Below, piece by piece: positions 11,713 to 51,001 of a stretch of 64,000 nucleotides of DNA. The first letter of the stretch is position 1; every line of letters starts with the position of its first letter. The stretch lies in IMG/VR virus record IMGVR_UViG_3300037067_011978; one strand, given 5' to 3'. This stretch comes from an uncultured virus (IMG/VR IMGVR_UViG_3300037067_011978) (lineage: Duplodnaviria > Heunggongvirae > Uroviricota > Caudoviricetes). The notes beneath the pieces were generated by a model. It saw only the letters and a list, made by a program, of their open reading frames with translations. It was not told the DNA's origin and made no database searches. A program made the translations under genes and the position numbers.

Positions 11713-11713
11713 A

Positions 11714-12779: not shown

Positions 12780-13054
12780 TTAACCTTCCTAACGTCATAG
12801 TCTAACCATGATTCTCTTTCCTCATTATAAATCTGTTCTGCTTCATCTTCATCTTCAATATTATCTTCTTCCATAATTTGCTCAATATCTCTTAATCCAT
12901 GTAATCCTGCATAAGAATCATATTCTTGACAAGCCATTTCATAGGCATAAGTATTAGCTTCGTCTTCATTTTTAGCATCGATGATTTCTTCATCTTTATA
13001 TTTAATTCCACCAAATCCACCACCTAACCCATACCTAATAGCAAATTTAATCAT

Positions 13055-26400: not shown

Positions 26401-26474
26401 GGACCGTTAGCTCAGTTGGCTAGAGCAACACACTTTTAATGTGTAGGTTATTGGTTCGATTCCAATACGGTTCA
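26401..26474 (+). tRNA. tRNA-Lys(UUU)
   Basis: Cloverleaf: GGACCGT/ACGGTTC acceptor, ACACA-CTTTTAA-TGTGT anticodon arm, GTTCGATTC T-loop; no encoded CCA. Confidence 0.93.
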
Positions 26475-26482
26475 AGTTTCTT

Positions 26483-26556
26483 GGCTCCGTAGTCCAACTG
26501 GCAGTGACAAGGGACTTAAAATCCCTCAAGTATGGGTTCGAATCCCATCGGAGCTA
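26483..26556 (+). tRNA. tRNA-Leu(UAA) with short variable loop
   Basis: GGCTCCG/CGGAGCT acceptor, AGGGA-CTTAAAA-TCCCT anticodon arm, GTTCGAATC T-loop, discriminator A. Confidence 0.88.
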
Positions 26557-27501
26557 GTAAGTTTTATTTAGGAGGAAATTATGGATTTTGATAACGAAGA
26601 TAATGAATTGGATAATCTTTTAATGAATATGAATATGGGATTGCTTCCTGAGAATCTTTGTCAATCTGAAATAGAATTATTAGAACAAAAATATGGCAAT
26701 AATTGGTTTGAAAAATTAGGCTATTCCGAACCTAAATACAAGAAGCCATTAAATGCCTAAGCAAAAAAGAAAATCTCCCGTATGGCGATGGGCATTAGAA
26801 AATGACAAGGTGATGCCAGTATTTTATTCCGAAAAGGAAGAGTATAAGGATATTAAGACCTGGAAAAATATCAATGACGTTCCAATTAGGAGGAAAAAAT
26901 GAATCCAGATACCAAGGACGTTTATGAAGAAAATAAAGAATTAAAGGAAATTGTAAGTGAACTACAAAGGGAATTATCAATAGCTAAAAATAAAATTGCT
27001 GATCTTACATACGCAATTATGGGGCATTCTTTAAGTTATTAGGAGGAACTATGAAGAACAGTAAGCAAGAACAAATGTTTTATAATGTAGCAAAACAATA
27101 TGTATTAAAACAGGATTATCTATCAGGCGAAAAGGATGAAGGTGAAATTGAATTATTGAATGAAGAAATCAGGATTCTTTCAGGGAAAATAAAACATTAT
27201 CTTTTCAAACTATGGAAAGAACAAAAGATCATTATTGTTTGGGATAAGGAGGAAGTGAAATGAATAGCAGATATTTTGATAATGATTTATTTGAGAATTT
27301 AGTCAATCAGGTTTGTCAAAAGGAAACTAGAATACTTGGCGGGATATTAATAGGCCCGTCAGATAATAATGATTATATAGAAATGTGGGAAAGGCTTTTA
27401 ACAGAAAAGAAAAAGGAAATAAAGGATATGGAAATTGCGATCAGCCTATTAAAATTGGCTAATGAGTTAAAAGTAAAATATGTAGATTCAGAAGAAGACA
27501 A

Positions 27502-34332: not shown

Positions 34333-34346
34333 AGATGATGTATAAT
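34329..34346 (+). promoter_or_regulatory. AAAGAT-class promoter
   Basis: TTAAAGATGATGTATAAT(ATAG). Confidence 0.7.
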
Positions 34347-36446
34347 ATAGATAGGAGAAATAAATGACCGATATCCAATACAGATTTTTGGAAAACATTA
34401 AATTATATGTACAATCAGATCCTGAAATAGCACCATACATTTCTGATTTCGTTGCTAAAGGATTAAAAGAAGCCTTAGATGAAGCCAATCAGCGAGCAGC
34501 GGATATGGAAATTGTTGCTTCAGTGATGATGTATAAAAAGAAGTGGAAAGGCCAAGATGAATTAGTTATGAGCAAAATAAACAAATGGAAAAATAAGGCA
34601 AGCTTGAATTGGGATGGGCTTCTAAAAGAAGTTAAATGAATCATTATATCGTAACCATATCTAAAAATATGTTTAAATATTATCTGCAAAAAGTTGTTTC
34701 ATACAAAAGGAACAAGGTTATTTTGACGATTGATTTTGACAAAGCATATAAATATGTTTCTAATGATTCTGCCATCAAGGCTTCAAATGCTTTCAATGGG
34801 GAGGTAAAGGTAATATGAAAAAAATATTGACGATGGAAGAAAGAATATTAAGAATTGAAAAGCAAATTCCTGTTTCAGTACAAGGTACTATTTTACAAAG
34901 GATTTTAACCGAAACAGGAAAAGCTTGGAGCTTAGGATTGGGTGGACTGCAAGAGCCTAAAATATTTTTTATTGGGGACGATATAAATATATGTCTTAGA
35001 AAAGCAGAGAAAGAGCTAATTAAATAAATGAAATATCCATTTGGCACTATCAAAGATGGAAGGCGAAAGGATATATTTTCTATAATCATTTTTGGCTTTC
35101 CTATTTTCTCATATTTTGTAATTGATTTTCGCAGGGAAATGATTACTTCAAAAGATAAATGGCAAGTAGGATTTTTATATATTCTAGGATTCCATATCTG
35201 GACAAAGGATATAAAATAATGGAAATCGAAAAAGGAAGATGGTATTTATGTGAAGACGAATTACCTCCATTTGAATTTCCAGTTATAGGAATGTATTCTG
35301 GTGGATGTTGGTTTGCAGGAACTAGAGAAAAAGATGAACAATGGTTTGACGGAGAATATTATTGTAAATGTCCTGATTATTGGATGATACCTAAAAAACC
35401 AGATTTTGCACCAGTAAAAGGTAAATGCTAAATATATGAATTATTATCGTTATGATGATCCTATGTGGTATGAAGGCGAATATGAACCATATGAATTATT
35501 ATTAAATGAATATAAAGTATTGAAAATAACGCCTCGCGGAGTATGGATCAAATATCCTAGAAATGATAAATATCCAGTAGGAAAATATATTGAAGGTAAG
35601 AAATTTATATTAGAAAAGATAGGTTATTTTAATAAAGAAAAAACTAAAAAACGTTTTGCTTGGCCTACAAAAGAGGAAGCATTAATTTCATATAAAAAAC
35701 GAAAAGAAGGTCAAATATGGATTATAGAAAATCAATTAAGAATAGCAAAATTAAATTTAGAATTAGCTAAAGGAATAAATAATGCCTAGTATATATAAAA
35801 ATCCATTTACATTTAAACCTAATAATGTTATTGAACCAATAGAAATTGAATTATATGAATGCCCAAATTGTAAATATAGAATACCAATTTTACCTGAACA
35901 TTTTGATTATAGAGAAATGTATGAAGAACAAATATTTATTACCCAACAATTAGTAAAAAAGTATGAATTATTTTTAGAAGAAATAGCAATGTTAAATCCT
36001 GATGCAGAAGTTTTAGTTGAGAAAAGAAGATCAAAAATGAAAGAATTAATAAAACAATTAAGAGAAATGGCGTATAGAGCAAGGAATAATAAGGAAAAAG
36101 AATAAAATATGCCATATTTAGAAACGCCACAAGATTTAGCAGAAGACATAGCCGATAAATTAGGAATATATGGAAATATTCCAGAGAATGATGAACATCT
36201 TGATAATTGTAATTGTAGACTTTGCTTTGTTGAAATTATGATAGACAGAATTAAAAATAGTGTTATTAATAATCTATCTATTATAAATAAGGAATAAAAT
36301 GAATTTAAATAATTATAAAATGTATCATATTTATAAATATAAATGGATGAATAAATATTTGCCTAAAAAATTTGTAAAACTTCCTGGTTATAATAAAGGA
36401 ATTGAATTTTTAGGTAAAGAATACTTTGTAACTAGGATAATATAAT

Positions 36447-37877
36447 TTGACGCGAGAGAAAATAAAAATTGATAGTGAAGTTTCTATCCTCATAAATTGC
36501 ATAACCAATGATAGATTTTTGCAAGAAATGATTCCTATAATAAGGCCAAATTATTTTAAACTTGGTTATTCAAAAGTTATTTATAAATGGATAAAGGAAT
36601 ATTGGGAAGCATATTCTTGTGCTCCAAAAAAATATATTACAAATATTTATAAACAAAAATATGCTTTGTTAAAAGAAGATTCAGATGAAAATGATGAAAT
36701 TAAATTATTCTTAACTAACTTATCAAAAAAATATGAAGAATATTCTGATAATAATAACATTAAACCATTAATAGATGAAGCTGAAAATTATTTAGGTATT
36801 AGATCAGGTGAAGTATTAAAAGAACAAATTGAAGATGCATTGTTATCTAACGATAAGAAAAAACTTGAAACTGTTATAGCTAATTATAAAAGAGTAGAAA
36901 AACCAACTGGTGAAGGTATCGATCTTTTACATGACCATACAAAAATATTAGAAGCATTGACAAAAGAACATAATGAAATAATTGTTTTCCCTGGTGCAGT
37001 AGGAAAAATAATTCCACCTATTTGTCGTGGCGATTTTATGTCATTTTTTGGACCAGCTAAGCGTGGAAAAAGTTTTTGGCTTTGGTATACAGCCGAAGTA
37101 GCAATGGGACAAGGATGTAAAGTTATTTATATCCCATTAGAAATGAACGATACTGCAATAATAAAAAGGAGTTGGCCATCAATAACAGGTAAGCCATTAT
37201 TTAATAGGATAGTGCATTCAGCACATTTTGAAGAAGATGGAGAGAAGTTTTCAATAATTCAAGATGAAAAAGAAATGGAAGGTTTCAATTTAGAATCAAT
37301 TGAAGATATGCAGAAAAAATTAAGGAGACTTTATAGAAAAGGTAGAATAAAAATAATTCCTATGGTAGGGGCTACGTGCAAAAAGATTGAATCAATTTGT
37401 GATAATCTATATTATTATGAAAATTTTGTACCTGATGCAATAGTTATTGATTATGCTGATTATATGGAAACAGAAGGAAAATATACAGATAACAGAGATA
37501 AGATAAACAAGATATGGAAAGGAGTAAGAGATTTTGGAAATGAACGAAATATTGCAATGATAACCGCGAGCCATACGGAAAAGAAAACTTTCAACGAGGA
37601 TATAAAGACTTCGCAGGCATCAGAGGACATAAGAAAAATAAACCATGTAACATTGGCAGTGAGCTTGAATGCCACTGATAAAGAAAATGAAAATAATATA
37701 ATTAGGTTAGGAATGATGGAGATTAGGGAAGGCAGGCATATATCAGATCAAGCCGTAGTATTGCAATGCCTGGATTTAGGTAGGCCATGCATAGATAGTA
37801 AGATGAAGAAGGAAGTCAATGGGTATAATAATTCGGAAGAAAAAAAGCAGTATCGAAGAAAAAATGTTGAAAGATAA
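36447..37877 (+). CDS. dnaB: replicative DNA helicase, DnaB-like
   Basis: Walker A GPAKRGKS, LEM, IVIDYAD, TASH; 476 aa. Confidence 0.85.
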   Translation: MTREKIKIDSEVSILINCITNDRFLQEMIPIIRPNYFKLGYSKVIYKWIKEYWEAYSCAPKKYITNIYKQKYALLKEDSDENDEIKLFLTNLSKKYEEYSDNNNIKPLIDEAENYLGIRSGEVLKEQIEDALLSNDKKKLETVIANYKRVEKPTGEGIDLLHDHTKILEALTKEHNEIIVFPGAVGKIIPPICRGDFMSFFGPAKRGKSFWLWYTAEVAMGQGCKVIYIPLEMNDTAIIKRSWPSITGKPLFNRIVHSAHFEEDGEKFSIIQDEKEMEGFNLESIEDMQKKLRRLYRKGRIKIIPMVGATCKKIESICDNLYYYENFVPDAIVIDYADYMETEGKYTDNRDKINKIWKGVRDFGNERNIAMITASHTEKKTFNEDIKTSQASEDIRKINHVTLAVSLNATDKENENNIIRLGMMEIREGRHISDQAVVLQCLDLGRPCIDSKMKKEVNGYNNSEEKKQYRRKNVER

Positions 37878-37885
37878 TGTATAAT
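37868..37885 (+). promoter_or_regulatory. AAAGAT-class promoter heading the modification cluster
   Basis: TGAAAGATAATGTATAAT. Confidence 0.7.
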
Positions 37886-37895
37886 AAGGATAAGC

Positions 37896-39284
37896 ATGAA
37901 AATAAACAAACTTATTGAAAGAGAAGTGACTTTTGAATGTGTTCCAAGTGTCATTGGCTCTGGTTATGAAGTGCAAGTAGCGGATTTGGCTTTGCGTGAT
38001 GGTGTAGCATATCGAGCCGCTAGAAAAAATATGCAGATTCATTCCGCTATTATCCTAAAGATAGATGGAAAGTTTAGCGGATTTTTTACGTTCCAAATAA
38101 ACCATGAAGTTGGCGAATTTTGCCTATTACAATCAGCAATGGAATTAGACAGGAAAGACAAGGAAATATATAAGGATATGTTACGTGAGATAATCAAGCA
38201 AAATACATTTGGCTATCCAATGATTATGACGGTTAGCACAAAACATGATCTTGAAAGACCAGATGTATTAGAAGCCGTTGGATTCAAAACATATCTTAAT
38301 TTAAGTGGATTTGCCTATATGGTTTACGGAACTATGGAACAGGTCAGGATGAAGCGACTTGCACATGCTACCATGACAAATACTTGGACTTCTACCAAGG
38401 CTGATTGGTTGAAAATGAAACATGAATGGAACGATAAAATAGAGGCTATGGGCAAAAAGTATAATATCAAAAATCCTAAGTTTGCTTCGCGTGATGGTTG
38501 TTGGCAAGGTAAACAGGGAATGGCTAATATCGTAATGGCTTCACAGAAAATAGTAGATGGAAAGATAAAAAATAAAACTGATAAAACATTGAATGGGAAC
38601 GCATCGGTACTCGATCCTGTAGCTTGCGAAGTTATATTAAGATTTTTCATGCCTACAAATGGTAAGCGGGTTTATAATCCTTTTGGTGGTGGTGTTCAAT
38701 TTGGATTTGTTGCAGGATCATATGGGTATAAATATATATCAAGTGAAATTAGGCAAAATCAATGCGATGCTAACAATGCATTGTGCCAGGATTTCAAGAA
38801 TGTAAAATGGATAAAAAGTGATAGTTCAAAATACATTCCTAAAAATAAAGTTGATTTAGTTTTTTCATGTCCACCATATTACCAGGTGGAAGAGTATTTA
38901 GATTATGATGGAAAATCTCCAGAAGGCGAATTGAATAAAATACCTACTTATGAACAATTCAGGGATACACTTTTTGAAGGATATAAAAAAGCAATAAGTG
39001 TATTAAATAATAATTGTTTTGTAATAATAATGACTGGAGATTCAAGAAATAAAGATGGCGCTTATTATGGTTGTGAAGCCGAGCATGAATTATTTTTTAG
39101 AGAACAAGGATTGCACATCTATAACAAGATAATTTATTTGGAATGTGAGTTTACTAGATTGGCGCAAGCCAAGGTTACATTGAATTATAGAAAGTTCCCT
39201 AAGCGTGAACAGAAAATATTGGTTTTTTACAAAGGAGATATAAAGAAAATATCAGAATTATATCCTAAAATAGGCAGGCTATAG
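37896..39284 (+). CDS. DNA amino-methyltransferase with N-terminal GNAT-like domain
   Basis: VYNPFGGG (motif I) and FSCPPY (motif IV); first ~145 aa show a GNAT-like pattern (IILKIDGKFSGFFTF...CLLQSAM...LEAVGF). Confidence 0.75.
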   Translation: MKINKLIEREVTFECVPSVIGSGYEVQVADLALRDGVAYRAARKNMQIHSAIILKIDGKFSGFFTFQINHEVGEFCLLQSAMELDRKDKEIYKDMLREIIKQNTFGYPMIMTVSTKHDLERPDVLEAVGFKTYLNLSGFAYMVYGTMEQVRMKRLAHATMTNTWTSTKADWLKMKHEWNDKIEAMGKKYNIKNPKFASRDGCWQGKQGMANIVMASQKIVDGKIKNKTDKTLNGNASVLDPVACEVILRFFMPTNGKRVYNPFGGGVQFGFVAGSYGYKYISSEIRQNQCDANNALCQDFKNVKWIKSDSSKYIPKNKVDLVFSCPPYYQVEEYLDYDGKSPEGELNKIPTYEQFRDTLFEGYKKAISVLNNNCFVIIMTGDSRNKDGAYYGCEAEHELFFREQGLHIYNKIIYLECEFTRLAQAKVTLNYRKFPKREQKILVFYKGDIKKISELYPKIGRL

Positions 39285-40195
39285 TGGAACGATTCAAGGA
39301 TAAAATAACATTGATTGAAAATAATCGTGGTTGTTTTATCCTTGATACTATTAAAGGATGTAGTGGCTGCAATGAAAAAAGGCCACGGGGATGCTATGAT
39401 GATTGCTATGCAAAAAATATAACTTCAAGATATAAGCAGATAGATTTCACCATTCCTGTAAAAAGAATGTTCATTGAGAATAAATCAAAATATGCCTTAT
39501 TTGATTTCGATGATACTAGGCACATAAAAGAAATAATTGGCAAGATAGAAAAAATAAATATGCCATTTGTTAGAATTGGGGAAATGGGAGATCCTTCTGA
39601 AGATTGGGAACACACAATAAATATTTGTAAGCAAATTTCAATTACTAATAAATATATAGTAATTATAACTAAGCACTGGAAAATAATTAACAACAAATTA
39701 TTGGATAAATTAAAATCAAATTCAAATTCAAATATTTGTATTAATACTTCTATATCCGCACTTGATACAGAAAGGGAAATTGAATATCGATTAAAACAAT
39801 ATAATAGATTGAAGGAATTATGTAATTCAGTATTAAGGATTGTAACTTGTGACTTCAATATTAAAAATAAAGAAGGCAATGTTAGAAACAAAATACAAAA
39901 TGAGTTATTGTCAATTCCTAATCATATAGATACAATATTCAGGCCAAGTAATAATAATCCATTGGTCATTAATAAAATCATAAATGTTAATAATGTAAAA
40001 TTCTTGAAAAAGGAAGTGCTGGCGAGTATGCATGATAAAAATGCTTATCTAGGATTTTGTAATACTTGTCCTGATATGTGCGGGATTCCAATTGAATTGA
40101 AGGAAAGTTATTACAAGCAAACCGTGGAGAACCTGAAAATTGCTAATAAGAAAAAAGGTATGTCATTGATCGGGCAATCATTATTTATAGAATAA
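39284..40195 (+). CDS. radical-SAM-like Fe-S protein
   Basis: KGCSGC...GCYDDCYAK Cys cluster, VRIGEMGDPS, IITKHW, terminal CNTCPDMCG. Confidence 0.6.
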   Translation: MERFKDKITLIENNRGCFILDTIKGCSGCNEKRPRGCYDDCYAKNITSRYKQIDFTIPVKRMFIENKSKYALFDFDDTRHIKEIIGKIEKINMPFVRIGEMGDPSEDWEHTINICKQISITNKYIVIITKHWKIINNKLLDKLKSNSNSNICINTSISALDTEREIEYRLKQYNRLKELCNSVLRIVTCDFNIKNKEGNVRNKIQNELLSIPNHIDTIFRPSNNNPLVINKIINVNNVKFLKKEVLASMHDKNAYLGFCNTCPDMCGIPIELKESYYKQTVENLKIANKKKGMSLIGQSLFIE

Positions 40196-40207
40196 TATGC
40201 AAAAAAT

Positions 40208-40225
40208 TGAAAGATAGTGTATAAT
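40208..40225 (+). promoter_or_regulatory. AAAGAT-class promoter
   Basis: TGAAAGATAGTGTATAAT(ATAG). Confidence 0.7.
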
Positions 40226-40425
40226 ATAGATATGGAAACTTCATACAAGCAATTTTTCTTCGATCTTAGGGGCAAATTGTTGACTGGTCAAGTAACCTAT
40301 GATGAAGCAATAAAGATTGTACAGCCTGTATTAGATGAGATGAACAAGAAAGGCGAATTGATAGCTAAGAAGTATGATAGAAAATATAGAAAAGTAAGTT
40401 ATATTACTGTATTAAAAGGATAAAA

Positions 40426-41358
40426 ATGGACAAAGTATTAGTAACTGGTGGGGCTGGATTTATAGGCAGTCATTTATGTAAAAAACTAATTGACCAAGGG
40501 AATATTGTCTATTGTTTAGATAACCTATTTACAGGAAATAAAAAAAATATAAAAGAACTTCTTGACAACCCCAAATTTTCTTTTCTGGAATATAATATAA
40601 TCGTGCCATGTGATTTGGATGTCAATAAGGTATATAACCTGGCTTGTCCTGCTAGTCCTATTCATTATCAGTTATTCCCTGTAGAAACCTTAAAGACAAG
40701 TATTCTTGGATCTATAAATATGCTTGATTTGGCGAATAAGAATAAAGCCAGAATTCTACAAACATCGACTTCTGAAATATATGGTAACCCATTTGTTCAT
40801 CCTCAAAAAGAAGATTATTGGGGGAATGTAAATCCGATTGGTGTTCGTTCTTGCTATGATGAAGGAAAACGTTGTGCCGAGACATTATTTTTTGATTATA
40901 ATAGACAATATGGGACAGATATTAGAGTTGTAAGGATATTCAATACTTATGGTCCTAACATGAATATTAATGATGGCAGGGTTGTAAGTAATTTCATAAT
41001 TCAAGCCTTAACAAACGAGGATATAACGATTTATGGTAGTGGATTACAAACAAGGTCTTTTTGTTATATAGATGATATGATAGATGCTTTGCTATTGATG
41101 ATGGGTAATGATTTTATTGGCCCTATAAATCTCGGAAATGAGAATGAATTTACAATTATTGAATTGGCAGAGTTGGTGTTATCTATAACTAATAGTAAAT
41201 CTAAGATAACATTTAATGAACTTCCACAGGATGATCCTAAACAGCGAAAACCAGATATAAGTCTTGCTAAGAACAAGCTGGGATGGGGACCAAAAATTCA
41301 ATTGAAAGAAGGATTGATAAAAACCATAGAATATTTTGAGGAACAATTATGCAAATAG
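40426..41358 (+). CDS. uxs: UDP-glucuronate decarboxylase (UDP-xylose synthase)
   Basis: [68 protein letters not shown]. Confidence 0.93.
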
Positions 41359-42659
41359 CGGTTATAGGAACTGGATATGTTGGCTTGGTTACTGGAGCAT
41401 GTTTTGCTGAATTGGGAAATATTGTTACTTGTATTGATATAGATAAACAAAAAATAGATAATCTAAAAAATGGAATTATTCCAATTTATGAACCAGGATT
41501 ATCAGAACTTGTAAAAAGGAATATAGAAGAAAATAGATTGATATTTTCTACAGAATATTCAGATATAAATAATTCAGAAGTTATTTTTATAGCTGTAGGG
41601 ACTCCATCAAATGAAGATGGTTCGGCCGATCTTAAATATATTAAATCTGTAAGCAGGTCAATTGGTAAATATATAAATGGATACAAAATAATAGTAAATA
41701 AATCCACGGTTCCTGTTGGAACATATAAATTGGTAAAAAATATAATAAATGAAGAGATAGAAAATAGAAAGGCTTTTATTGTATTCGATATTGTATCAAA
41801 CCCAGAATTTTTAAGAGAAGGAACTGCAATAAATGATTTTATGAGACCAGATAGAATAGTTATTGGGTGTAGTAATAGTGTATCTGAAAATGCAATGAGA
41901 AAATTATATGAACCTTTTATAAAAAATCAACATCCATTTATTGTTATGGATAATATTTCTGCAGAGTTGACAAAATATGCTGCTAATACAATGTTAGCAA
42001 CTAGAATCAGTTTTATGAATGAATTAGCAAATCTATGTTCTAAAGTTGATGGTAATATTGATAATGTTCGTTTAGGTATTGGAAGTGATTCAAGGATAGG
42101 ATTGCCGTTTTTATATTCAGGTATCGGCTATGGTGGATCCTGTTTCCCAAAGGATGTCAAGGAACTTATTAATTTTGGGAATAAAAATGGAATCGATATG
42201 AGTATAGCCAAGGCAGTTGAGGATATAAACTATAACCAAAAAAGAATACTATTGAAAATGATAAAAGACAGATTTGGGAATGATTTAAGCAATAAGACCT
42301 TTGCTATTTGGGGGTTATCATTTAATCCACAAACAGATGACATACGGGAATCTCCATCATTAGTTATAATTCAAGGTTTACTTGATATTGGAGCTTCTAT
42401 ACAAGTATATGATCCAGAAGCCATGGAAAACACCAAACAAATATTTGGAAATTCTGTAAAATACATATATAATATGTATGATGTATGTAAAGATTGTAAT
42501 TGCTTGTTATTGCTTACAGCTTGGAAACAATTTAGGCAACCAGATTTTTCTCTTATTAAAAACAATTTAAAAGAACCAATTATTTTTGATGGCAGGAATC
42601 AATATAAATTAGAAGATATGAATGAACTTAGTTTTGAATATCATAGCATAGGACGATAA
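41349..42659 (+). CDS. ugd: UDP-glucose 6-dehydrogenase
   Basis: [48 protein letters not shown]. Confidence 0.95.
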
Positions 42660-42660
42660 T

Positions 42661-42933
42661 GTGAAAAAGAAATTTGTAAAGAAAAATGCTTTATTGGAAA
42701 TCGAAGATAATGAAGAGTGGAGAGAACATTGGAAGGGGATGCCAGAATTTTCCCATAAGGATATTACTCCATATTTTTCCATAAAGATACATTTCAATAC
42801 GAAAGAAAGCATAAAGCAATTTTCAGAATTGGTTGGGCAAAATATTACTGAAAATACCAACTCTATTTGGTATCCAAAACAGAAAATCACCCATGTTGCA
42901 AATAAAAGATATATAGATGAATCAGAAGTATAA
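42661..42933 (+). CDS. small protein coupled to the glycosyltransferase
   Basis: WKGMPEF...LVGQNIT..T.SIWYP; overlaps the glycosyltransferase start. Confidence 0.6.
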   Translation: MKKKFVKKNALLEIEDNEEWREHWKGMPEFSHKDITPYFSIKIHFNTKESIKQFSELVGQNITENTNSIWYPKQKITHVANKRYIDESEV

Positions 42934-43783
42934 ACCAAAGTATCCGATTTATATTATCTCTAAAGGAAGGGCTGATACTGGATTAACATATAAATTCTTG
43001 GAGGAAATGAACCAACCTTATCATATAGTCATAGAGAAACAGGAATATAAACAATATAGGAAATATATAGATAAAGAAAAAATATTAGTATTACCTTTTA
43101 GCAATTTAGGACAAGGTGGGATTCCAGCAAGAAATTGGGTATGGGAACATGCAATTGCTACTGGGTCTTTTCGTCATTGGATTATGGATGATAATATAGA
43201 TGGATTTTGGCGATCAAATCATAATAGAAGGGTAAGGGTAAGGACACCGGCATTATTCAGATGCCATGAGGATTTTATAGATAGATATGAAAATGTTGCT
43301 ATGTCTGGACTTAATTATTATATGTTTTGTCCGGATAAAGTTATAAAACCACCATACGAATTGAATACAAGGATTTATTCATGTATTCTTTTACGAAATG
43401 ATCTTCCTTATCGATGGAGAGGAAGATATAATGAAGACACTGATTTATCAATTAGAATATTAAAAGATGGTTGGTGTACTATATTATTCATGGCAATGCT
43501 AGCTAAGAAAATGCCTACCATGACTATGAAAGGTGGGAATACAGAAGATTTATATGAAATAGAAAATGGAAGATTATTAATGGCTCAGTCACTTGAAGAA
43601 CAGCATCCAGATATAGTTACTATTACTAGGAAATGGGATAGATGGCAACATCAAGTTGATTATTCTAAATTCAAAAATAATAAATTGATATTAAAGAAAG
43701 ATGTAAAAATTCCAGATGGCATAAATAACTATGGAATGAGATTAATCAAATGGGATAAGGAGAAAAATTGTGCTATTAGATGA
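42917..43783 (+). CDS. GREB1/TAGT-like GT-A glycosyltransferase (DNA-base glycosyltransferase family)
   Basis: YPIYIISKGR, ARNWVWEHA, HWIMDDNI, RIYSCIL, YNEDTDLS, KGGNT, WQHQVDY. Confidence 0.8.
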   Translation: MNQKYKPKYPIYIISKGRADTGLTYKFLEEMNQPYHIVIEKQEYKQYRKYIDKEKILVLPFSNLGQGGIPARNWVWEHAIATGSFRHWIMDDNIDGFWRSNHNRRVRVRTPALFRCHEDFIDRYENVAMSGLNYYMFCPDKVIKPPYELNTRIYSCILLRNDLPYRWRGRYNEDTDLSIRILKDGWCTILFMAMLAKKMPTMTMKGGNTEDLYEIENGRLLMAQSLEEQHPDIVTITRKWDRWQHQVDYSKFKNNKLILKKDVKIPDGINNYGMRLIKWDKEKNCAIR

Positions 43784-44585
43784 AGATAGAAATAAATCAT
43801 TTGAAAATTTTTTAATTAGGTGTAGTAAATATCGCAATATAAATGTGGATTTAATTAGAAATATTTTTAATACTACAATAAAATATTTGTTTGCTAATAA
43901 AGAAAAAAGACAAGAATTAAAACTAAACCAAAATCTTGAAAATAGATGGTATAAAGAATTAGATACTGGTAATATAGATTATTCTGTTTATGATACAGAT
44001 GAATATATAGCGGAGCTTTGGGCTTGTTGGATAGTATATTCAAAAAAATATTTACTTTCGATTCAAAAGGAATCATCATTCCCACCGTATGGGATAGTTA
44101 ATAATTTTGGAAAAGTTAAAAAAATAGTTGATTTGGGATGTGGTTTTGGCTATACTACGTTAGCATTAAAACAAATATTCCCTAATGCGGAAGTTTATGG
44201 AACTAACATAGAAAATACAATACAAATTAAATTTGCTAAACAACTTGGTAAAGAAAATAATTTTAATATAGTTAGTAATATTAAAGAGATAAAAGGTAAA
44301 ACCGATCTAGTATTTGCTAGTGAATATTTTGAACATATTTTAGAACCAATTAAGGATTTACATAAAATAGTCAAATATTTAGAACCAAGAAATTTTCTTA
44401 TTGCTAATGCTTTTGGAACAAGAGCTATAGGACATTTTATAAATTATTTATATAATGAGAATGAAATAGACGGGGAATTAATTTCTAGATTATTTAATAA
44501 GGAACTAAAAGAATTTGGATATGAAAAAGTAAAAACAAAACTATGGAATAATAGACCAGCATACTATAAACTAAAGGAGAAATAA
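43770..44585 (+). CDS. class I SAM-dependent methyltransferase
   Basis: IVDLGCGFG; DLVFASEYFEHI..P. Confidence 0.85.
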   Translation: MLLDEDRNKSFENFLIRCSKYRNINVDLIRNIFNTTIKYLFANKEKRQELKLNQNLENRWYKELDTGNIDYSVYDTDEYIAELWACWIVYSKKYLLSIQKESSFPPYGIVNNFGKVKKIVDLGCGFGYTTLALKQIFPNAEVYGTNIENTIQIKFAKQLGKENNFNIVSNIKEIKGKTDLVFASEYFEHILEPIKDLHKIVKYLEPRNFLIANAFGTRAIGHFINYLYNENEIDGELISRLFNKELKEFGYEKVKTKLWNNRPAYYKLKEK

Positions 44586-45664
44586 TGCAACTAAACAAAA
44601 ACGAATTCTTATCCGCAATGAAAAAGGCAATGCCTGGCGTCGAAAGTTCCAATACCATCCTGCAAGGTGCGGATACTTATATTTTTCATAACGGGTATAT
44701 CTATACCTATAATGACGCCATCAGCGTATCTGTACATTTTCCAATCACCAATAAAGCTGGCGAGAATATTTCAGCAGCCATCAAGGCAAAGGATTTTTAT
44801 GATCTGATTTCCCGCTATGAAGGCGATTCACTTACCATCATTCCTAAAAATGATATGTGGATCATCAAGTCAGAAAACGCTAGGGCAGAAATTACGTTAC
44901 TAGAAAATAATCTCATCGAGCGAATCGAAGGCATAAAGATCGATCCTAAGCAATTCAAGAAAATTCCTGATAGGTTCATGGAAGGAATGGCAATATGCAA
45001 TTTTTCTTCTAAGTCACAATTATCAGGATTATTCTGCTCAGATCAGGTTATGGTATCTGCTGATGAGCTGAAGATTAATTGGTATGGATTGAATGATGCT
45101 TTTACTACTAGTTTCTGGATTACCAATGATGCCGTTAATAACCTATTGAAGTTAAATGAAATTACCAAATACCATGTATCTGATTCATGGGTTCATTTTA
45201 TGACTAAGGATAAAACCATTTTTTCCTGCAAGCGATTAGTCCAGGATAAGTACCCGTTTGATAAAATAAATGAGTTGGTTGATAGTCATAAAAAGGTAAA
45301 AGAAGATATTTCAAATGAATTGCCAAATAAGCTGATTGACGCGGTGAATAGGGCGGCGGCGCTAAGCACCAATATTGAAAGTTTCGATACAGTGAAATTG
45401 ACATTCACCCCAGAGATGATAGAAGTATTTGCGCAAAGGCCAAGTGGCAAGTATACAGAAAATGTTCCATGGGAAAAGCCATTTAAGAAGGAATTTGATC
45501 CAATCAGCATTTTCGTTGATTACCAAATGATAGAGAATGGGATAAAATATAGTAAGAGCTTTTATTTACATAATACTTTGGTAAATGAAAAAAATAGGAC
45601 CAGAGTTATTTTCGTATCAGAGTTTGGAATCCAGCTTATTTCTACTTTTGATGGAGGAGAATAA
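44585..45664 (+). CDS. DNA polymerase III beta-clamp-like protein
   Basis: 359 aa; N-terminal LNKNEFLSAMKKA...ILQG; KYP..; LIDAVNRAA; lies just before dnaE. Confidence 0.7.
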   Translation: MQLNKNEFLSAMKKAMPGVESSNTILQGADTYIFHNGYIYTYNDAISVSVHFPITNKAGENISAAIKAKDFYDLISRYEGDSLTIIPKNDMWIIKSENARAEITLLENNLIERIEGIKIDPKQFKKIPDRFMEGMAICNFSSKSQLSGLFCSDQVMVSADELKINWYGLNDAFTTSFWITNDAVNNLLKLNEITKYHVSDSWVHFMTKDKTIFSCKRLVQDKYPFDKINELVDSHKKVKEDISNELPNKLIDAVNRAAALSTNIESFDTVKLTFTPEMIEVFAQRPSGKYTENVPWEKPFKKEFDPISIFVDYQMIENGIKYSKSFYLHNTLVNEKNRTRVIFVSEFGIQLISTFDGGE

Positions 45665-45882
45665 AAATGAAATGTTGGAAATGCGGAATAAATGAATTGA
45701 ATACAGGAGATGGCGATGGAATTTGTTTATCTTGTAAAAACAAATTAAATCCAAACTACATAAAGCCTATTTATTATCAATCAGGATGGATATGTCCTAA
45801 ATGTGGTTCGGTATATGGACCAGGACAAAATGAATGTATAAGATGTAATCCGCCAATTATTCCACAGGTTACTTGCTAATAA

Positions 45883-48609
45883 ATGAATAATTTTATCCAT
45901 CTACATTGCCACAATGAATATTCTCTCCTTGATGGATTCGGAACATCTAGTAATTACGCAAAAAAGATTATAGAAAATAATCAATTAGGCATGGCACTGA
46001 CAAATCACGCTAATGTAGATGGCAATATAAAATTTCAAAATGAGTTTATCAAAAATAATTTAATCCCTATTCATGGCGTAGAATTTTATATAGTTAATAA
46101 TATTTCAGAGCATCCAAAAGGTGAGAAGCGAAGTCATTTACTGGCATTAGTAAAAAATGAAATTGGCTGGACAAATATTTTACAAATGCTTACTATTGCT
46201 AATTTAGACGGGCAATATTATCGCCCTCGCATTTCTCCAGAAATATTATTAGAGCATTGCGAAGGGCTAATTATTTCAACTGCTTGTTCTTCATCATTTA
46301 TAAAAGAAAAATGGGGAAGGAAACTATTAAAGGATTTATACAATAAAATTGGGAATGATTTATATACAGAAGTAATGCCTTTCAATATGCAAGATCAAAT
46401 AGAAGTAAATGAATTATCAATTAAATATGCAAATGCTTTAGGATTAAAAACAATAGCCACTAACGATTGCCACTATATCAATAAAGACGACGCGCAAGCC
46501 CAAGAAGTATTATTAGCTATTCAAACAAAAAAACGATGGAATGATTCTGACAGATGGAAGTTTCAAGTTGACGGATTATATGCAAAAAATTATGATGAAA
46601 TGTTTTTAGCATTTAAGAAGCAAAAGCAATTTAATAATAAGCAAATAGAAGAGTATTTGGATAATACTTTAGAAGTATTTGAGAAGTGCAAGGATTTTCG
46701 TATTCCAGAAAGAAAAGTTGCTTTGCCAAAAACACCAGAACTAAAAGAATATAATGGTACGGCAGAAGAATTATTATGGGAAAAATGTTTAGTAGGATTT
46801 GAAAAAATAACGGAAAATAAATCAGTATATAAAAAACGCCTTAACGATGAAATGAAGTTAATAGTTAGTCAAGGATTTTGTGAATATTTTCTAATTGTTG
46901 AAGAAGTGATTAGATGGTGCAAAGAAAATAATATAATGACAGGGCCAGGGCGAGGAAGCGCGGGTGGTTCATTAGTTTGCTATTTATTAGATATTACTAA
47001 AATTGATCCAATTAGATTTGATTTATTATTCTCGCGCTTTATTTCTCCTGATCGTATAGACCTTCCTGATATTGATAATGACTTCCAAGATAATAAGAGG
47101 CAATTGGTTATAGAACATTTCAAGGAAATATATGGCGAAAATCACGTTGCTTGCGTTTCTACTTTTATGTCGATGAAAGGCAAAGGCGCTTTACGAGATG
47201 TTTCAAGGGTATTTGATATTCCATTAAATGAGGTAAATGAAGCATCTAAAAATATAGATGAAGGTGAGGATGAAGATTCAGAAAGTGAAAGTATTATTGG
47301 TCAATTAAACAATACTTCTGATGGGAAATTATTCATAAAAAAATATCCTACTGTCTATAAAATGGCATCTAAACTTGAAAATCAGATTCGCGGGAAAGGA
47401 ATGCACGCCGCCGCAGTAGTAATTTCAAAAGACAATCTAAGGAATGGTGACAAGGTATATTTACAGAAAACTCCGAATAAGAATAAAAATGATATAGTAG
47501 TAAATTGGGATAAATATGATATTGAATATGAAGGTTTGATGAAGTTAGATATTCTAGGGATAAACGCGCTAACAGTATTGAATGAAGCTAGGGAACTGAT
47601 AAAAATAAATACTGGGGAAGATATTGTATATGAGGATATTGATTTGAACGATCCTAAAATATTCAAAGAATTTTCAAAAGGTAATAATGATGGAGTTTTT
47701 CAATTTGGTACTTATGGACTAAAAAAACTTTGTAAGGAAATGGGAATAGAAACATTTATGCATTTATCAGATGCCAATGCATTGTGTAGACCTGGAACCG
47801 CCCATTCAGGATTAACCGATTTATATATTCAAAGAAAGCATGGACAAAAAATACCTAAGCAAGATTCGATAATTGAAAAAATAACTAAGAATACATTTGG
47901 AATTATTTTATATCAAGAGCAACTAATGCAGATAGTAAACGAAGTGGCAGGGCTTGATTGGAAAATAGCAGATAAAGTTAGAAAGGTTGTAGCAAAAAGT
48001 AAAGGAAGTGAAGAGTTTCTAAAATTCAAAAAGACATTTGCAAGCGGTTGCGTAAAGAATAATACATTAAGTAAAATAGAAGCCGAAAAATTATGGGATG
48101 AATTGGCGGCATTTGGTTCATACTCGTTCAATAAATCACATTCTGTTGCTTATTCTGTAATTTCGTACTGGGATATGTTCATTAAATTATATTACCCTAC
48201 AGAGTTTATTTGCGCTTCATTAACTTGTGGAAGTAAAACTGGCAAGCAAAGTTTAATTGAAGATGCTTTGAAAAAAGATATTGATATTAGACCGCCTAAA
48301 ATTGGAAAATCAGATAGCCACAAATGGATAGTAAAAAATGATGTTATGTATTGTCCATTTATTGAGGTAAAAGGATTTGGCGATGGATCGGCTAAGGAGG
48401 CAATGAATAAGAAAAATAAAGTTTCTACTAATCAAGGATTTTTTGATTTAGGAGAAAATATTGGCAATGGCAAGAAAACAAAAGTTGAACAAATATTATC
48501 AGATATAGATGCATATAAAGATGTTACGATTACTTCAAGCCAAGATAACAAGATAAAAGATTATTTTGATTTTAGATTCAAATTAGTGGAAAGGAGTAGA
48601 TATGATTGA
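45883..48609 (+). CDS. dnaE: DNA polymerase III alpha subunit (C-terminally short)
   Basis: PHP HLHCHNEYSLLDG, GPGRGSAGGSLV, PDIDND, HAAAVV, KLDILG, YSFNKSHSVAY. Confidence 0.95.
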   Translation: MNNFIHLHCHNEYSLLDGFGTSSNYAKKIIENNQLGMALTNHANVDGNIKFQNEFIKNNLIPIHGVEFYIVNNISEHPKGEKRSHLLALVKNEIGWTNILQMLTIANLDGQYYRPRISPEILLEHCEGLIISTACSSSFIKEKWGRKLLKDLYNKIGNDLYTEVMPFNMQDQIEVNELSIKYANALGLKTIATNDCHYINKDDAQAQEVLLAIQTKKRWNDSDRWKFQVDGLYAKNYDEMFLAFKKQKQFNNKQIEEYLDNTLEVFEKCKDFRIPERKVALPKTPELKEYNGTAEELLWEKCLVGFEKITENKSVYKKRLNDEMKLIVSQGFCEYFLIVEEVIRWCKENNIMTGPGRGSAGGSLVCYLLDITKIDPIRFDLLFSRFISPDRIDLPDIDNDFQDNKRQLVIEHFKEIYGENHVACVSTFMSMKGKGALRDVSRVFDIPLNEVNEASKNIDEGEDEDSESESIIGQLNNTSDGKLFIKKYPTVYKMASKLENQIRGKGMHAAAVVISKDNLRNGDKVYLQKTPNKNKNDIVVNWDKYDIEYEGLMKLDILGINALTVLNEARELIKINTGEDIVYEDIDLNDPKIFKEFSKGNNDGVFQFGTYGLKKLCKEMGIETFMHLSDANALCRPGTAHSGLTDLYIQRKHGQKIPKQDSIIEKITKNTFGIILYQEQLMQIVNEVAGLDWKIADKVRKVVAKSKGSEEFLKFKKTFASGCVKNNTLSKIEAEKLWDELAAFGSYSFNKSHSVAYSVISYWDMFIKLYYPTEFICASLTCGSKTGKQSLIEDALKKDIDIRPPKIGKSDSHKWIVKNDVMYCPFIEVKGFGDGSAKEAMNKKNKVSTNQGFFDLGENIGNGKKTKVEQILSDIDAYKDVTITSSQDNKIKDYFDFRFKLVERSRYD

Positions 48610-49000
48610 ATTAGAATTTAGATTGATTTATCAACATGAAGAAACTGGGTATATTCAAGAACGATATATTTTATTAGGGGAGTTAATTCCAGAAATTGCT
48701 AGATATAGGTTAGTCACAAAAAATCAATATATTGGATATCATGATAAAAATGGTAAAAAACTTTATTTAGGTGATATATTAAAAGTCCCATATGGATGGT
48801 CAGGCGATTATGAAGAAAAAGAACATTTAGCAGAAATATTTAATGATGATGAAGATGGTATAGGGTTTTACTATTCAAGACCTGATGATGTTTCTATACG
48901 AGATTGCGAAAAAGTAGGAGATATTTATAATAATCCAACTATGATTGAATATGAAAATGCAATGAAAGAATTGAATAAACAATACCCGACCAAAAAATGA
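48602..49000 (+). CDS. YopX-like protein
   Basis: QYIGYHDKNGKKLYLGDIL...VGDIYNNP. Confidence 0.75.
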   Translation: MIELEFRLIYQHEETGYIQERYILLGELIPEIARYRLVTKNQYIGYHDKNGKKLYLGDILKVPYGWSGDYEEKEHLAEIFNDDEDGIGFYYSRPDDVSIRDCEKVGDIYNNPTMIEYENAMKELNKQYPTKK

Positions 49001-49496
49001 ACTATCTAAAAATAACTAAAGAGCAAGCCTATTATCTAGGCATTACCATGTGGGGATTCTTGTATTTGTTCCCTGAAATTGATTATAAATGGGAATTGCC
49101 TAAAAGATTATACGCCATTATTAAGCAATTATATTATTGGTGCCCATGTTGCGCAGTATATAATTTGCATGATGGAACTAGGAATTGCCCTGGATGCCCA
49201 TTAGAAAACAATTGCATCGAAGGCGAGCATTTATATAAAACTTGGTCAGAGACAAATAATATAAAAGTAAGAAAACAATATGCTAAAAAGATATTAGATA
49301 GAATAATCAAAGGAGGATATTAAATGAATGCAAAACTACTATCATATAATATAAATAGAATATGTGATATTTGCGATAATAAAAACGAAAAAGTAACTGC
49401 GCATATTCAAGACGTAATTGGAAATATTCATGTATTTTGTATTGAGTGCTTAAATAAAATAGTTTTAGAATCTCCAAGTAAAGTTGAAATAGAAAA

Positions 49497-49778
49497 ATGA
49501 TTGATAAATTAAAAATTGAAAAACGATGTATTAAGATACGAGGAAAAGAATGGTGTTTGAAAAAATTAGCCGAGGAATGTTCAGAATTAAGCGCTGCTAT
49601 ATTGCAATATTTAACCAAAGAAGCATCTGAAATAAACATATTGAAAGAAAGTGCTGATGTAGAAATAGCCATAAGGATAATAAAATTGATATATAACAAT
49701 AGTTTAATAGAGTATAAAGAAAAGAAATATTTAAGGATTGATAAAAAATGTTCAGAGTTGGAAAATGCTGATTCCTGA
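49497..49778 (+). CDS. MazG-like nucleotide pyrophosphohydrolase
   Basis: KLAEECSEL...ESADV acidic motif. Confidence 0.65.
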   Translation: MIDKLKIEKRCIKIRGKEWCLKKLAEECSELSAAILQYLTKEASEINILKESADVEIAIRIIKLIYNNSLIEYKEKKYLRIDKKCSELENADS

Positions 49779-49909
49779 TTATATTGAAGAGTCTATCTTA
49801 TGGGCAGAAAATTGCATAAAGCAGAATCGGTGAGGAAAAGGCGAGATAAAACATTTGAAAAACCTGTTGGAACTGATAAAAATATTTACAGAAAATGAAG
49901 TAAAAAATA

Positions 49910-49927
49910 TGAAAAATAATGTATAAT
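49910..49927 (+). promoter_or_regulatory. AAAGAT-class promoter (variant)
   Basis: TGAAAAATAATGTATAAT(ATAG) before AAGGAG. Confidence 0.55.
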
Positions 49928-50077
49928 ATAGATAAGGAGAAAAATATGGATGACGATATTGTTCCTTTTTGGGATGATGAAGAAATGTATAATAGAAATG
50001 AAGTATTAGGCGATGATGAGTCAATAGATTATGGTGAATCTGATTATGATATTGATCCATATATGGGAGATCATTAA

Positions 50078-51001
50078 TTGTCTAATTTATATGTCAAATA
50101 CAGACCAGAATCATTCGAGGATATGGTGGGCAATGAAGCCCAGATAAAGGCATTGCAAAACTCATTAAAGAAGAAAAACCATTCCCATACATTTTTATTC
50201 AGCGGGCCAAAAGGTTGTGGAAAAACTTCATCGGCTAGAATATTGGCAACGATGCTTGATGCTACAAGTTGGGACGTACAGGAAATAAATTGTGCTAATC
50301 TAAGGACTATTGACGATGCTCGCGCTATTGAATCATCCATTAGAACAATGCCTAATGGAAAGAATCGCGTTATTATCATGGATGAGGCCCATCAGCTTAC
50401 AGGGGCAGCACAATCAGTTTTATTGAAGCCATTAGAAGAACCACCCGAGTTCTGTTATTTTGTTTTATGCACTACCGACCCTAACAAGTTATTGAAAACA
50501 ATCCGATCTCGCTGCACTGAAGTAAAGTTTACTTCATTGCCAATTGACAGCATTAAGGAAATTATCAATAGGGTCTGCAAGTTAGAAAAGATAAAACTAT
50601 CAGAAGATACAATTGAAAGCATTGCAGAAAAATGCGAAGGAAGTCCTAGAAATGCTTTGGTAATACTAGAGCAAATATCGAATGCTGATGATGAAAAGGA
50701 TATTGAGAAAATACTTGATTCAAAAGGTTCTGAGGATGATATTGAAATAATAGAATTAGCAAGGGCATTACTTAATAAAAAGCCATGGGATACGATAAAA
50801 GGCATTTTATCTAAACTCAAGGAAAATGGGAAATTAGATGATGCCGAGACAGTTAGATATATTGTTCTAGGATATATGTCAGCGGTATTATTAAAATCAA
50901 ATAATAAGCAGGCCGCAATAACAATGGAAGCATTTATTGAACCTACATATAATAGCGGAAAGTTTGGAATTATTTTAGATTGTTTCAACGCTATTTGCTA
51001 A
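50078..51001 (+). CDS. dnaX: clamp-loader ATPase (Pol III gamma/tau-like)
   Basis: LYVKYRPESF, GPKGCGKT, IMDEAHQL, LLKPLEEPP, TIRSRC, GSPRNAL. Confidence 0.88.
   Translation: MSNLYVKYRPESFEDMVGNEAQIKALQNSLKKKNHSHTFLFSGPKGCGKTSSARILATMLDATSWDVQEINCANLRTIDDARAIESSIRTMPNGKNRVIIMDEAHQLTGAAQSVLLKPLEEPPEFCYFVLCTTDPNKLLKTIRSRCTEVKFTSLPIDSIKEIINRVCKLEKIKLSEDTIESIAEKCEGSPRNALVILEQISNADDEKDIEKILDSKGSEDDIEIIELARALLNKKPWDTIKGILSKLKENGKLDDAETVRYIVLGYMSAVLLKSNNKQAAITMEAFIEPTYNSGKFGIILDCFNAIC

Follow-up and report, generated by a model that had tools for sequence, protein, structure and literature searches.

A stretch of 64,000 nucleotides from an uncultured member of the Caudoviricetes (IMG/VR record IMGVR_UViG_3300037067_011978), referred to here at its full length as the window, carries a compact group of genes that appears to make a nucleotide sugar and to transfer it. 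Five open reading frames (ORFs), all on the + strand between positions 40426 and 44585 (Table 1), encode a UDP-xylose synthase (UXS), a UDP-glucose dehydrogenase (UGD), a small protein that we call s90, a glycosyltransferase of the TAGT family, and a class I methyltransferase (MTase). An initial annotation had described these genes as overlapping or abutting in a single run, and the ORF listing bears this out. In gene order, the junctions are a 10-nt overlap, a 1-nt gap, a 17-nt overlap and a 14-nt overlap, and the MTase gene in turn overlaps the sliding clamp gene that follows it by 1 nt.

The best explanation for this run is that it forms one glycosylation module within the replisome operon of the phage. 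As to its function, we tentatively favour xylosylation of DNA that is coupled to replication and uses an unknown acceptor, a reading to which we give somewhat less than even credence. The most informative gene is the small ORF, which the initial annotation had listed without assigning it a role and which encodes a conserved and often fused adaptor. What is new in this phage sugar-modification module is the combination of a UDP-xylose supply, a dedicated adaptor and an embedded MTase.

A TAGT-family glycosyltransferase and its small partner protein

The glycosyltransferase scores 173.5 bits with the TAGT family of Pfam (PF20691; E 7e-51), for which the cut-off is 27.5 bits, and the match spans all 205 positions of the profile; it also matches phrog_842 (E 3e-44). 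According to the available excerpt of a recent study, the T2/T6 enzyme that adds glucose to glucosyl-5-hydroxymethylcytosine in DNA is a member of PF20691 (PMC13216743), and the label of DNA-type glycosyltransferase given in the initial annotation is well founded in this respect. The characteristic motifs of the protein read SKGR, HWIMDDNI and RYNEDTDLS, and the DDN and EDT variants are kept throughout the TAGT clade. Phage T6 is absent among the 25 tblastn matches of the window TAGT at E <= 1e-5, which places the window protein in a distinct clade.

Sequence searches of the PDB with the TAGT, with a 303-amino-acid (aa) protein encoded upstream and with the MTase returned nothing informative. 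The fold was modelled on a natural s90-TAGT fusion protein from a related locus (L090:9977-11098), whose TAGT part is 59% identical to that of the window. This model (predicted local distance difference test score, pLDDT, 86.5) has 240 PDB matches at E <= 0.001, and those listed are almost all glycosyltransferases. The GT-A matches are headed by ColGalT1 and include LH3 and, at rank 9, TarP, which suggests that the window transferase likewise adopts a GT-A fold. From sequence, we infer that TAGT may transfer its sugar to DNA.

The 90-aa protein encoded immediately before the transferase has no match among the Pfam, PHROG, NCBIfam or PADLOC models. It comprises a core of the form W-x-G-M-P-E-F ... 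TxSIWYP preceded by the N-terminal tail KKNALLEIED. A TAGT-seeded scan of IMG/VR recovered 268 relatives, and the best 80 were used for locus comparisons. By tblastn, s90 adjoins TAGT in 69 of 81 TAGT-seeded loci, or in 67 of 79 when two loci of the same phage are set aside, and at least three of the 12 s90-negative loci (L066-L068) have a copy that is recognizable by its core motif. Among the proteins of the window module, s90 is the sole widely shared neighbour in these 81 loci, and no other family approached its frequency when all 1,526 ORFs of the TAGT loci were clustered. A second small family, found upstream of TAGT in 19 T4-like loci, was considered as a divergent adaptor and rejected, as it is a different protein with no Pfam match.

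The association also holds in the opposite direction. A scan of IMG/VR seeded with an alignment of 20 adaptor sequences (A1) located at least 532 loci. We searched 50 records taken from 77 new loci, and TAGT was present above the Pfam cut-off in 49 of them; among adaptor-seeded records that are at least 90% complete, it was present in eight of eight. The pair is also found in the cultured phages Aeh1 and phiAS5 (Aeromonas), PTm1 (Tenacibaculum) and POP12 (Pectobacterium), whereas in Vibrio phage henriette 12B8, which has TAGT, no adaptor was detected. In two of the carriers of the pair, s90 forms the N-terminal part of the TAGT gene itself (Aeh1p093 of Aeromonas phage Aeh1 and gp209 of Tenacibaculum phage PTm1).

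Further fusions were found among the uncultured relatives. One locus carries two tandem adaptor-TAGT fusion genes (L090:9977-12509) and another carries one (L045), whereas two more encode two adaptor domains in tandem before TAGT (L132:6489-8033 and L138:4135-5661). The tandem fusions and adaptor repeats of L090, L132 and L138 indicate that the module is often duplicated and reshuffled. In an additional case (L058), a ParB_N domain, s90 and TAGT are joined in a triple fusion. Two-way co-occurrence and natural gene fusions together argue that the small ORF encodes part of the transferase, either as a subunit or as a domain, and that s90 and TAGT are an obligate pair predicted to constitute a two-part enzyme.

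A single adaptor-TAGT fusion (L097:9286-11022) bears an extra C-terminal domain resembling the uracil-DNA glycosylase superfamily. The match covers almost the whole PF03167 profile, at a score that lies under the cut-off (E 0.009, 16.5 bits).

N-terminal extensions of the adaptor

The regions that precede the s90 core fall into two types. Long forms of s90 carry ParB_N at the N-terminus in six of nine cases at E <= 3e-4, with only that of L039 scoring above the Pfam cut-off. Free-standing forms have a short hydrophobic-Phe motif in its place, with acidic residues after it. In 62 of 96 short forms, the pattern [LFM]F lies no more than 30 residues before the core, compared with 15-20% in controls. 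The stricter pattern Q..[LMF]F is present within the same distance in 22 of 121 distinct s90 homologues (for example, QESLF, QNSLF, QQLLF and QPMLF), and is found in 0.6% of random windows and at 11 of 1526 ORF N-termini. T4-like loci have the variant tails ANLFVLDG and SSLFVLDG. Bacterial proteins bind the beta sliding clamp through a pentapeptide with the consensus QL[SD]LF, which the Q..[LMF]F tails of s90 resemble. Judging from this motif, s90 might bind a clamp, and the clamp encoded directly downstream of the module is a possible docking partner.

A clamp-binding motif and a ParB_N domain are both ways to ride DNA, and we therefore read s90 as a putative tether to newly made DNA. That the extensions are of DNA-riding types is our main argument for DNA as the target. 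The genomic position of the module is of the same kind, in that it is placed between the genes for DnaB helicase and for the clamp and PolIII alpha, and its counterparts in relatives are neighbours of genes for DNA polymerase, clamp loader, UvsX and DnaB.

There are precedents for both arrangements in excerpts of two studies. T4 alpha-glucosyltransferase co-purifies with the gp45 clamp, although the clamp interaction is not the main determinant of the glucosylation level (PMC13216743), and ParB-fold proteins activate phage DNA (thymine) dioxygenases (PMC13229309). These systems illustrate tethering or activation by a clamp or by a ParB fold; in the phage described here, however, the role of tether would fall to a separate 90-aa protein or to a fused domain and not to the enzyme itself.

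A complete predicted route to UDP-xylose

The first two genes of the run have clear assignments. When used as a phmmer query against the PDB, UXS matches the structures of human UXS1 (4gll and 2b69) at E 1.2e-110 and 373 bits, whereas the next PDB family scores 140 bits and ArnA or UAXS about 84 bits. Residues 3-308 align to the human enzyme without a gap, and a 16-residue segment as well as the hexapeptide YDEGKR are identical in the two proteins. Extended short-chain dehydrogenases/reductases (SDRs) are marked by an NAD-binding GxxGxxG motif and by catalytic Thr/Ser...Tyr-x3-Lys residues. In the alignment to human UXS1, both the cofactor and the catalytic motifs are kept.

UGD contains three UDPG_MGDP_dh domains (E 5.6e-70, 3.7e-33 and 1.2e-31), whose scores of 235, 114 and 110 bits compare with cut-offs of 27, 25 and 30. 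It reaches 454 bits with TIGR03026 (cut-off 190) and 519 bits with the TuaD model, which is under the equivalog cut-off of 700 for that model. Models for UDP-ManNAc and UDP-GlcNAc dehydrogenases give only 176, 156 and 59 bits, far under those for UDP-glucose dehydrogenases. The catalytic cysteine of these enzymes lies in a GGxCxxKD motif, and GGSCFPKD is present at residue 262.

Given this strong orthology, UGD and UXS are predicted to provide a complete route from UDP-glucose through UDP-glucuronate to UDP-xylose. The enzyme identities proposed in the initial annotation are upheld, and so is the UDP-xylose route as a prediction. That UDP-xylose serves as the donor of the adjacent transferase is a reasonable proposition, which derives from the adjacency of the genes.

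Comparison with other loci informs this proposition. Five of 155 TAGT loci excluding this phage (L073, L077, L078, L092 and L093) have a true UXS (49-64% identity over at least 250 aa) as a neighbour of TAGT, and the other 150 have none. These five represent at least three further lineages (L073; L077/L078; L092/L093), and in L073 a UGD-like gene (34%) comes after UXS. Other TAGT loci have genes for PMM, a cytidylyltransferase, a cupin, other SDRs and dehydrogenases, or GT4 at the same spot. The presence of differing sugar-nucleotide genes at one site suggests a variable donor cassette joined to a constant transferase. No residue separates the five UXS-linked TAGT sequences from 130 other distinct sequences in the alignment; the sole difference found is R170K in four of the five, and the window TAGT retains R. 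The proposal of the initial annotation that UDP-xylose (or UDP-glucuronate) is the donor has no counterpart in donor-specific residues of the TAGTs.

The same comparison bears on a rival explanation, by which UGD and UXS are auxiliary metabolic genes that serve the nucleotide-sugar pool or surface polysaccharide of the host and are unrelated to the transferase, with TAGT and s90 using a host donor such as UDP-glucose. Most s90/TAGT loci indeed lack UXS or UGD, with 150 of 155 lacking a true UXS, the UXS-linked TAGTs share no donor-specific residue, and the whole block is so tightly packed that adjacency is weak evidence. Against this explanation stand the true UXS genes that directly adjoin TAGT in at least three further lineages, and the other sugar-nucleotide genes at the same spot that look like variable donor cassettes on one transferase. 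We consider it quite improbable.

A small-molecule-type methyltransferase

The last gene of the module encodes a protein that matches several class I Methyltransf families (best E 1.3e-9) and contains the motif I sequence IVDLGCGFG. Homologues with 36-48% identity are present in seven of 79 TAGT-seeded and in four of 77 adaptor-seeded non-self loci. The homologue sits between s90 and TAGT in eight loci, none of which has a UXS match, and the MTase therefore seems to be an accessory of the transferase and not of the xylose pathway.

A structural model of the MTase (pLDDT 92, predicted template modelling score 0.90) comprises an N-terminal helical domain and a Rossmann-like methyltransferase fold. 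Its top PDB matches are MppJ, TnmJ, CcbJ, SgvM, DnrK and AtmM, with template modelling (TM) scores of 0.36-0.51. These enzymes methylate natural products at O, C or N atoms, and one of them, AtmM, is a sugar O-methyltransferase. The listed matches are all small-molecule or RNA methyltransferases, with no DNA methyltransferase among them. The initial annotation stated that the protein lacks the PPY motif of DNA methyltransferases. Taken literally this is incorrect, because an FPPY tetrapeptide occurs at about residues 103-106. Its position upstream of motif I and its absence from the eight homologues nevertheless argue that it is not motif IV of a DNA methyltransferase, which has the form (D/N/S)PP(Y/F), and the structural matches agree that the protein is not of the DNA-amino-methyltransferase type. 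From the modelled structure, it is plausible that the MTase methylates the transferred sugar.

The acceptor and arguments against xylosylation of DNA

The acceptor could be considered in the context of the complete genome, as a second IMG/VR record (G001; 63,498 bp) is 100% identical to window positions 1-14057 and 40846-64000. The two records overlap at both ends of the window and join into a circle of 90,286 bp. Genes for terminase, SPP1-type portal, capsid, tape measure and proteins of this kind lie in the additional 26 kb beyond the window. The source is a siphophage of about 90.3 kb with a GC content of 29.9%.

Several observations weigh against the modification of DNA with xylose. Scans with hmmscan of ORFs of at least 80-100 aa across the whole 90.3-kb genome gave no match to Thymidylat_synt, Tet_JBP (PF12851) or C5 DNA methyltransferases (C5-MTase, DNA_methylase). 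ThyA was likewise found in none of 42 related TAGT-bearing records (the longer ones of the 80 loci, ten of them at least 90% complete), in a search whose control was positive in 10 of 14 genomes. No TET/JBP protein was detected in two sets of 42 and 50 related records, yet this search was positive in no control genome and hence adds little weight beyond the direct scans of this phage.

Palindromic sequences are also depleted. In the reconstructed genome, the 52 6-mer palindromes have a median observed/expected ratio of 0.66 and the 16 4-mer palindromes one of 0.82, compared with 1.00 and 0.99 for 6-mer and 4-mer non-palindromes, respectively. For example, GGATCC occurs once where 10.7 occurrences are expected, TGATCA three times (24.7 expected) and GAATTC eight times (33.1 expected). 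Such avoidance fits DNA that is exposed to type II restriction, and not DNA that is globally hypermodified.

Other unfavourable points concern the proteins themselves. The solved folds closest to the modelled L090 fusion are generic GT-A enzymes that act on proteins or teichoic acid, with a TM score of about 0.35. The lack of any distinguishing TAGT residue leaves the proposed donor specificity without sequence support. The s90 tail of the window phage (KKNALLEIED) is deviant in having no Q..LF motif, which makes the tether interpretation weaker for this particular phage. Moreover, packing is equally tight for every gene from DnaB to PolIII alpha, so that adjacency alone sets no limits on the functional unit.

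The initial annotation had placed the xylose, possibly O-methylated, on 5-hydroxymethylcytosine (hmC), 5-hydroxymethyluracil (hmU) or 5-hydroxycytosine (hoC), as in phages of the T-even or RB69 type. The available excerpts of the literature offer grounds for this view, because the substrates of the TAGT family in T2/T6 derive from hmC (PMC13216743), and because hydroxylated pyrimidines are the only acceptors documented there (PMC13326640; preprint 10.1101/2023.12.21.572611). However, these bases have to be made by a hydroxymethylase or hydroxylase of the ThyA type, or by a TET/JBP dioxygenase. The genome has neither, no ThyA homologue or TET/JBP match was found in its relatives (the TET search of relatives having had no positive control), and palindromes are avoided. 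This part of the initial annotation is not supported, and we judge such an acceptor highly improbable. Because the genome encodes no known enzyme that makes these bases, an acceptor in DNA would be an unknown and probably sparse or sequence-limited site.

We also considered the 303-aa protein encoded upstream of the module as a general acceptor-making partner and rejected it, since it occurs in 0 of 161 TAGT/s90 loci even though its family is large. This Cys-rich protein belongs to a phage family of about 266 aa that has 659 matches and no Pfam model. It contains ten invariant cysteines, including C26...C37-x3-C41 and C259-x2-C262-x3-C266, and its structural model resembles SPL-family radical SAM clusters in the ESM Atlas (TM 0.57-0.63).

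The lack of an acceptor-making enzyme, considered together with palindrome avoidance, implies that any modification of DNA is likely to be sparse, sequence-limited or on an unrecognized acceptor, or else that the target is not DNA. In the latter case, the module would add sugar to a replisome or virion protein or to a host envelope polymer, comparable to the modification of wall teichoic acid with GlcNAc by the prophage enzyme TarP, and s90 would select the protein or polymer substrate. This alternative accommodates the two observations just named, the protein- and teichoic-acid-modifying GT-A enzymes among the top structural matches (ColGalT1, LH3 and, at rank 9, TarP) and the best score of UGD, which is with the teichuronic-acid enzyme TuaD. 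In addition, about 65% of the contigs with glycosyltransferases detected by GT-A/GT-B profiles lack an adjoining base-modification enzyme and are less obviously related to DNA in the view of the authors, as far as the available excerpt goes (preprint 10.1101/2023.12.21.572611). It is countered by the ParB_N fusions and clamp-motif-like s90 tails, which point to DNA, by a replication-operon position that is conserved across unrelated phage types, and by the one s90-TAGT fusion with a weak uracil-DNA glycosylase-like domain. On balance, we regard a non-DNA target as somewhat unlikely.

Proposed function of the module

In the reading that we favour, which is xylosylation of DNA linked to replication, UGD would oxidize UDP-glucose to UDP-glucuronate and UXS would decarboxylate this intermediate to UDP-xylose. 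The s90 adaptor and the TAGT catalytic subunit would then transfer the sugar, which the small-molecule-type MTase would probably tailor. The likeliest target would be the DNA of the phage itself, modified behind the fork, where s90 would tether the transferase to newly made DNA.

A more specific version of this scheme is that s90-TAGT adds sugar to DNA that contains no hydroxymethyl or hydroxy pyrimidine, either on a canonical constituent or on an unrecognized minor base. The reaction would be coupled to replication through the clamp-type motif or ParB_N domain of s90, and this phage would use xylose, with methylation as a later step. This more daring proposal is, in our estimation, unlikely.

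Relationship to known glycosylation systems

Excerpts of previous reports provide the background for these proposals. Characterized phage DNA sugars sit on hmC, hmU or hoC generated by ThyA- or TET-family enzymes (PMC13326640; preprint 10.1101/2023.12.21.572611), and solitary TAGT homologues of undefined function have been noted in 288 of 753 phage genomes (PMC13216743). The closest counterpart is the beta-glucosyl-HMC-alpha-glucosyltransferase of T2/T6. As described in the excerpted text, it shares with the window transferase its Pfam family (E 7e-51), a GT-A fold, its phage origin and a location near replication genes. The T-even enzyme adds glucose to hmC that is already glucosylated, and requires alpha-glucosyltransferase as well as gene 42 (ThyA family). 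In contrast, the window phage has no ThyA homologue and no alpha- or beta-glucosyltransferase, but has its own adaptor and UDP-xylose supply.

A second group of systems combines a C5-MTase, a 5mYOX (TET) enzyme and a GT-A transferase in phage gene clusters for sugar hypermodification, as reportedly described by Burke in 2021. In excerpts of a preprint by Pyle et al., JGT-like GT-A transferases from such clusters modify DNA, and these are likened here to the window enzyme as GT-A proteins, not as established members of PF20691 (preprint 10.1101/2023.12.21.572611). As in the window, the GT-A gene of these clusters is flanked by variable genes for sugar-nucleotide tailoring, with ParB, clamp and polymerase genes as frequent neighbours (excerpts of the same preprint). 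TarP, at rank 9 for the L090 model, is the top PDB match for the TET-linked enzymes in these excerpts. Unlike these clusters, the window phage has no match to 5mYOX or C5-MTase in the scanned ORFs. The GT-A motifs also differ, being SKGR...DDN...EDT in the window and R...DDD...EDY/F in the enzymes of the excerpted preprint (10.1101/2023.12.21.572611). Sections 8-9 of this preprint, as available, mention no adaptor protein, and the words xylose, glucuronate and pentose have 0 occurrences in it.

Xylose has previously been considered for Shewanella phage Thanatos, in which a pentose is attached to cytosine and an enzyme makes UDP-xylose in vitro (PMC12838424). Xylose transfer to DNA was not detected in that study, and the route employs a UDP-xylose pyrophosphorylase acting on xylose-1-phosphate, in contrast to UGD followed by UXS in the window phage (PMC12838424). 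In the available part of a 2026 paper, the Thanatos sugar is called arabinose, and the related phages RB69 and DLP3 carry arabinose on hoC made by a ThyA homologue (PMC13326640). Our literature search found no pairing of UXS and UGD with a phage DNA glycosyltransferase, no xylosyl base apart from the Thanatos work and no description of the adaptor; bioRxiv supplements, which possibly list such clusters, lay outside this search.

Gene order and other features of the genome

The module is embedded in a continuous run of + strand genes that spans positions 36447-49323 in the ORF listing (Table 1). Some homologues of the clamp are named PolIII beta clamp by their source or contain PF00712, and the clamp is present on a 90,413-bp contig as well, as revealed by a separate protein search. 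A scan of positions 34000-50500 found no + strand terminator-like site, and its promoter and terminator counts do not exceed those of shuffled sequences, so that an operon boundary cannot be defined by this means. Searches of sequencing runs indicate that DNA of this phage is present in groundwater and landfill metagenomes; these were the only two DNA data sets listed, and no RNA data set was among the matches. No cultured phage gives a megablast match to positions 36000-49000.

Table 1. Genes of the module and of the surrounding replication region (window coordinates).
Feature	Position	Strand	Basis of assignment
DnaB helicase	36447-37877	+	Pfam, PHROG and NCBIfam scans
462-aa protein, N6_N4-type MTase half with FSCPPYY	37896-39284	+	Pfam, PHROG and NCBIfam scans
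303-aa Cys-rich protein, followed by a 68-aa ORF	39284-40195 (303-aa)	+	ORF listing, library scans
UXS, 310 aa	40426-41358	+	phmmer to human UXS1; Pfam Epimerase/GDP_Man_Dehyd
UGD, 436 aa	41349-42659	+	three UDPG_MGDP_dh domains; TIGR03026
Putative adaptor s90, 90 aa	42661-42933	+	conserved neighbour and fusion partner of TAGT
TAGT-family (PF20691) GT-A glycosyltransferase, predicted catalytic subunit, 288 aa	42917-43783	+	PF20691; phrog_842
Class I S-adenosylmethionine (SAM) MTase, 271 aa, N-terminal helical domain	43770-44585	+	Methyltransf_31/23/11/12/25
DnaN-like sliding clamp	44585-45664	+	TIGR00663 dnaN, E 6e-4
Zinc-ribbon ORF	between clamp and PolIII alpha	+	library scans
DnaE-type PolIII alpha	45883-48609	+	library scans
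Clamp-loader-like AAA+ gene	50078-51001		domain scan

The 462-aa protein encoded after the DnaB helicase is amino-MTase-like in its C-terminal half, where NPFGGG is followed by FSCPPYY with CPPY as an unusual motif IV, and its residues 1-180 have no assigned family. It matches phrog_498 as well as the PADLOC models mad2 and MTase_II, and a relative with 31% identity is encoded about 1 kb downstream of TAGT in another locus (L020).

A possible second sugar-related block occupies positions 898-8898 on the - strand. It encodes an MptE-like/DUF115 protein (898-2328), YopX, a SLOG YAcAr protein, a 237-aa protein with the cytidine/dCMP-deaminase fold (2723-3436), a protein whose N-terminal half resembles the cytidylyltransferases PseF and KdsB (3828-4583), and two ABC permease-like proteins (6087-6899 and 7715-8536). 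This block could be a system for CMP-sugar transfer.

A 467-aa AAA_15 ATPase (57773-59176, + strand) matches the anti-phage defence protein PD-T4-4_A nearly from end to end (E 1.2e-139) and may be used against competing phages; a 118-aa ORF lies nearby at 59344-59700. Two adjacent tRNA genes on the + strand (26400-26557), for tRNA-Lys(UUU) and tRNA-Leu(UAA), decode A/U-ending codons, which is consistent with a genome of 30% GC. In the part of the genome beyond the window, a DUF4406 protein (E 7.5e-19; L084:19470-19805, in G001) is encoded just after the large terminase gene, and we take this family to be related to nucleoside 2-deoxyribosyltransferases.

Implications

This phage encodes a transferase of a DNA-modifying family with its own adaptor and a self-sufficient supply of UDP-xylose, in a complete genome that contains neither of the ThyA and TET routes. 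A concrete and testable mechanism for solitary TAGT proteins is offered by the adaptor together with its fusions and tether-like motifs. If the target is DNA, the module would introduce a new donor sugar and possibly new acceptor chemistry, with a bearing on the evasion of restriction and CRISPR systems and on tools for DNA labelling. If the more specific proposal of sugar addition to DNA without a hydroxylated pyrimidine were true, it would be without precedent among DNA sugar modifications in needing no ThyA-type or TET-type priming, and hundreds of uncultured phages as well as several cultured ones would have it. If the target is not DNA, then a large share of the annotations of phage ‘DNA glycosyltransferases’ would be wrong.

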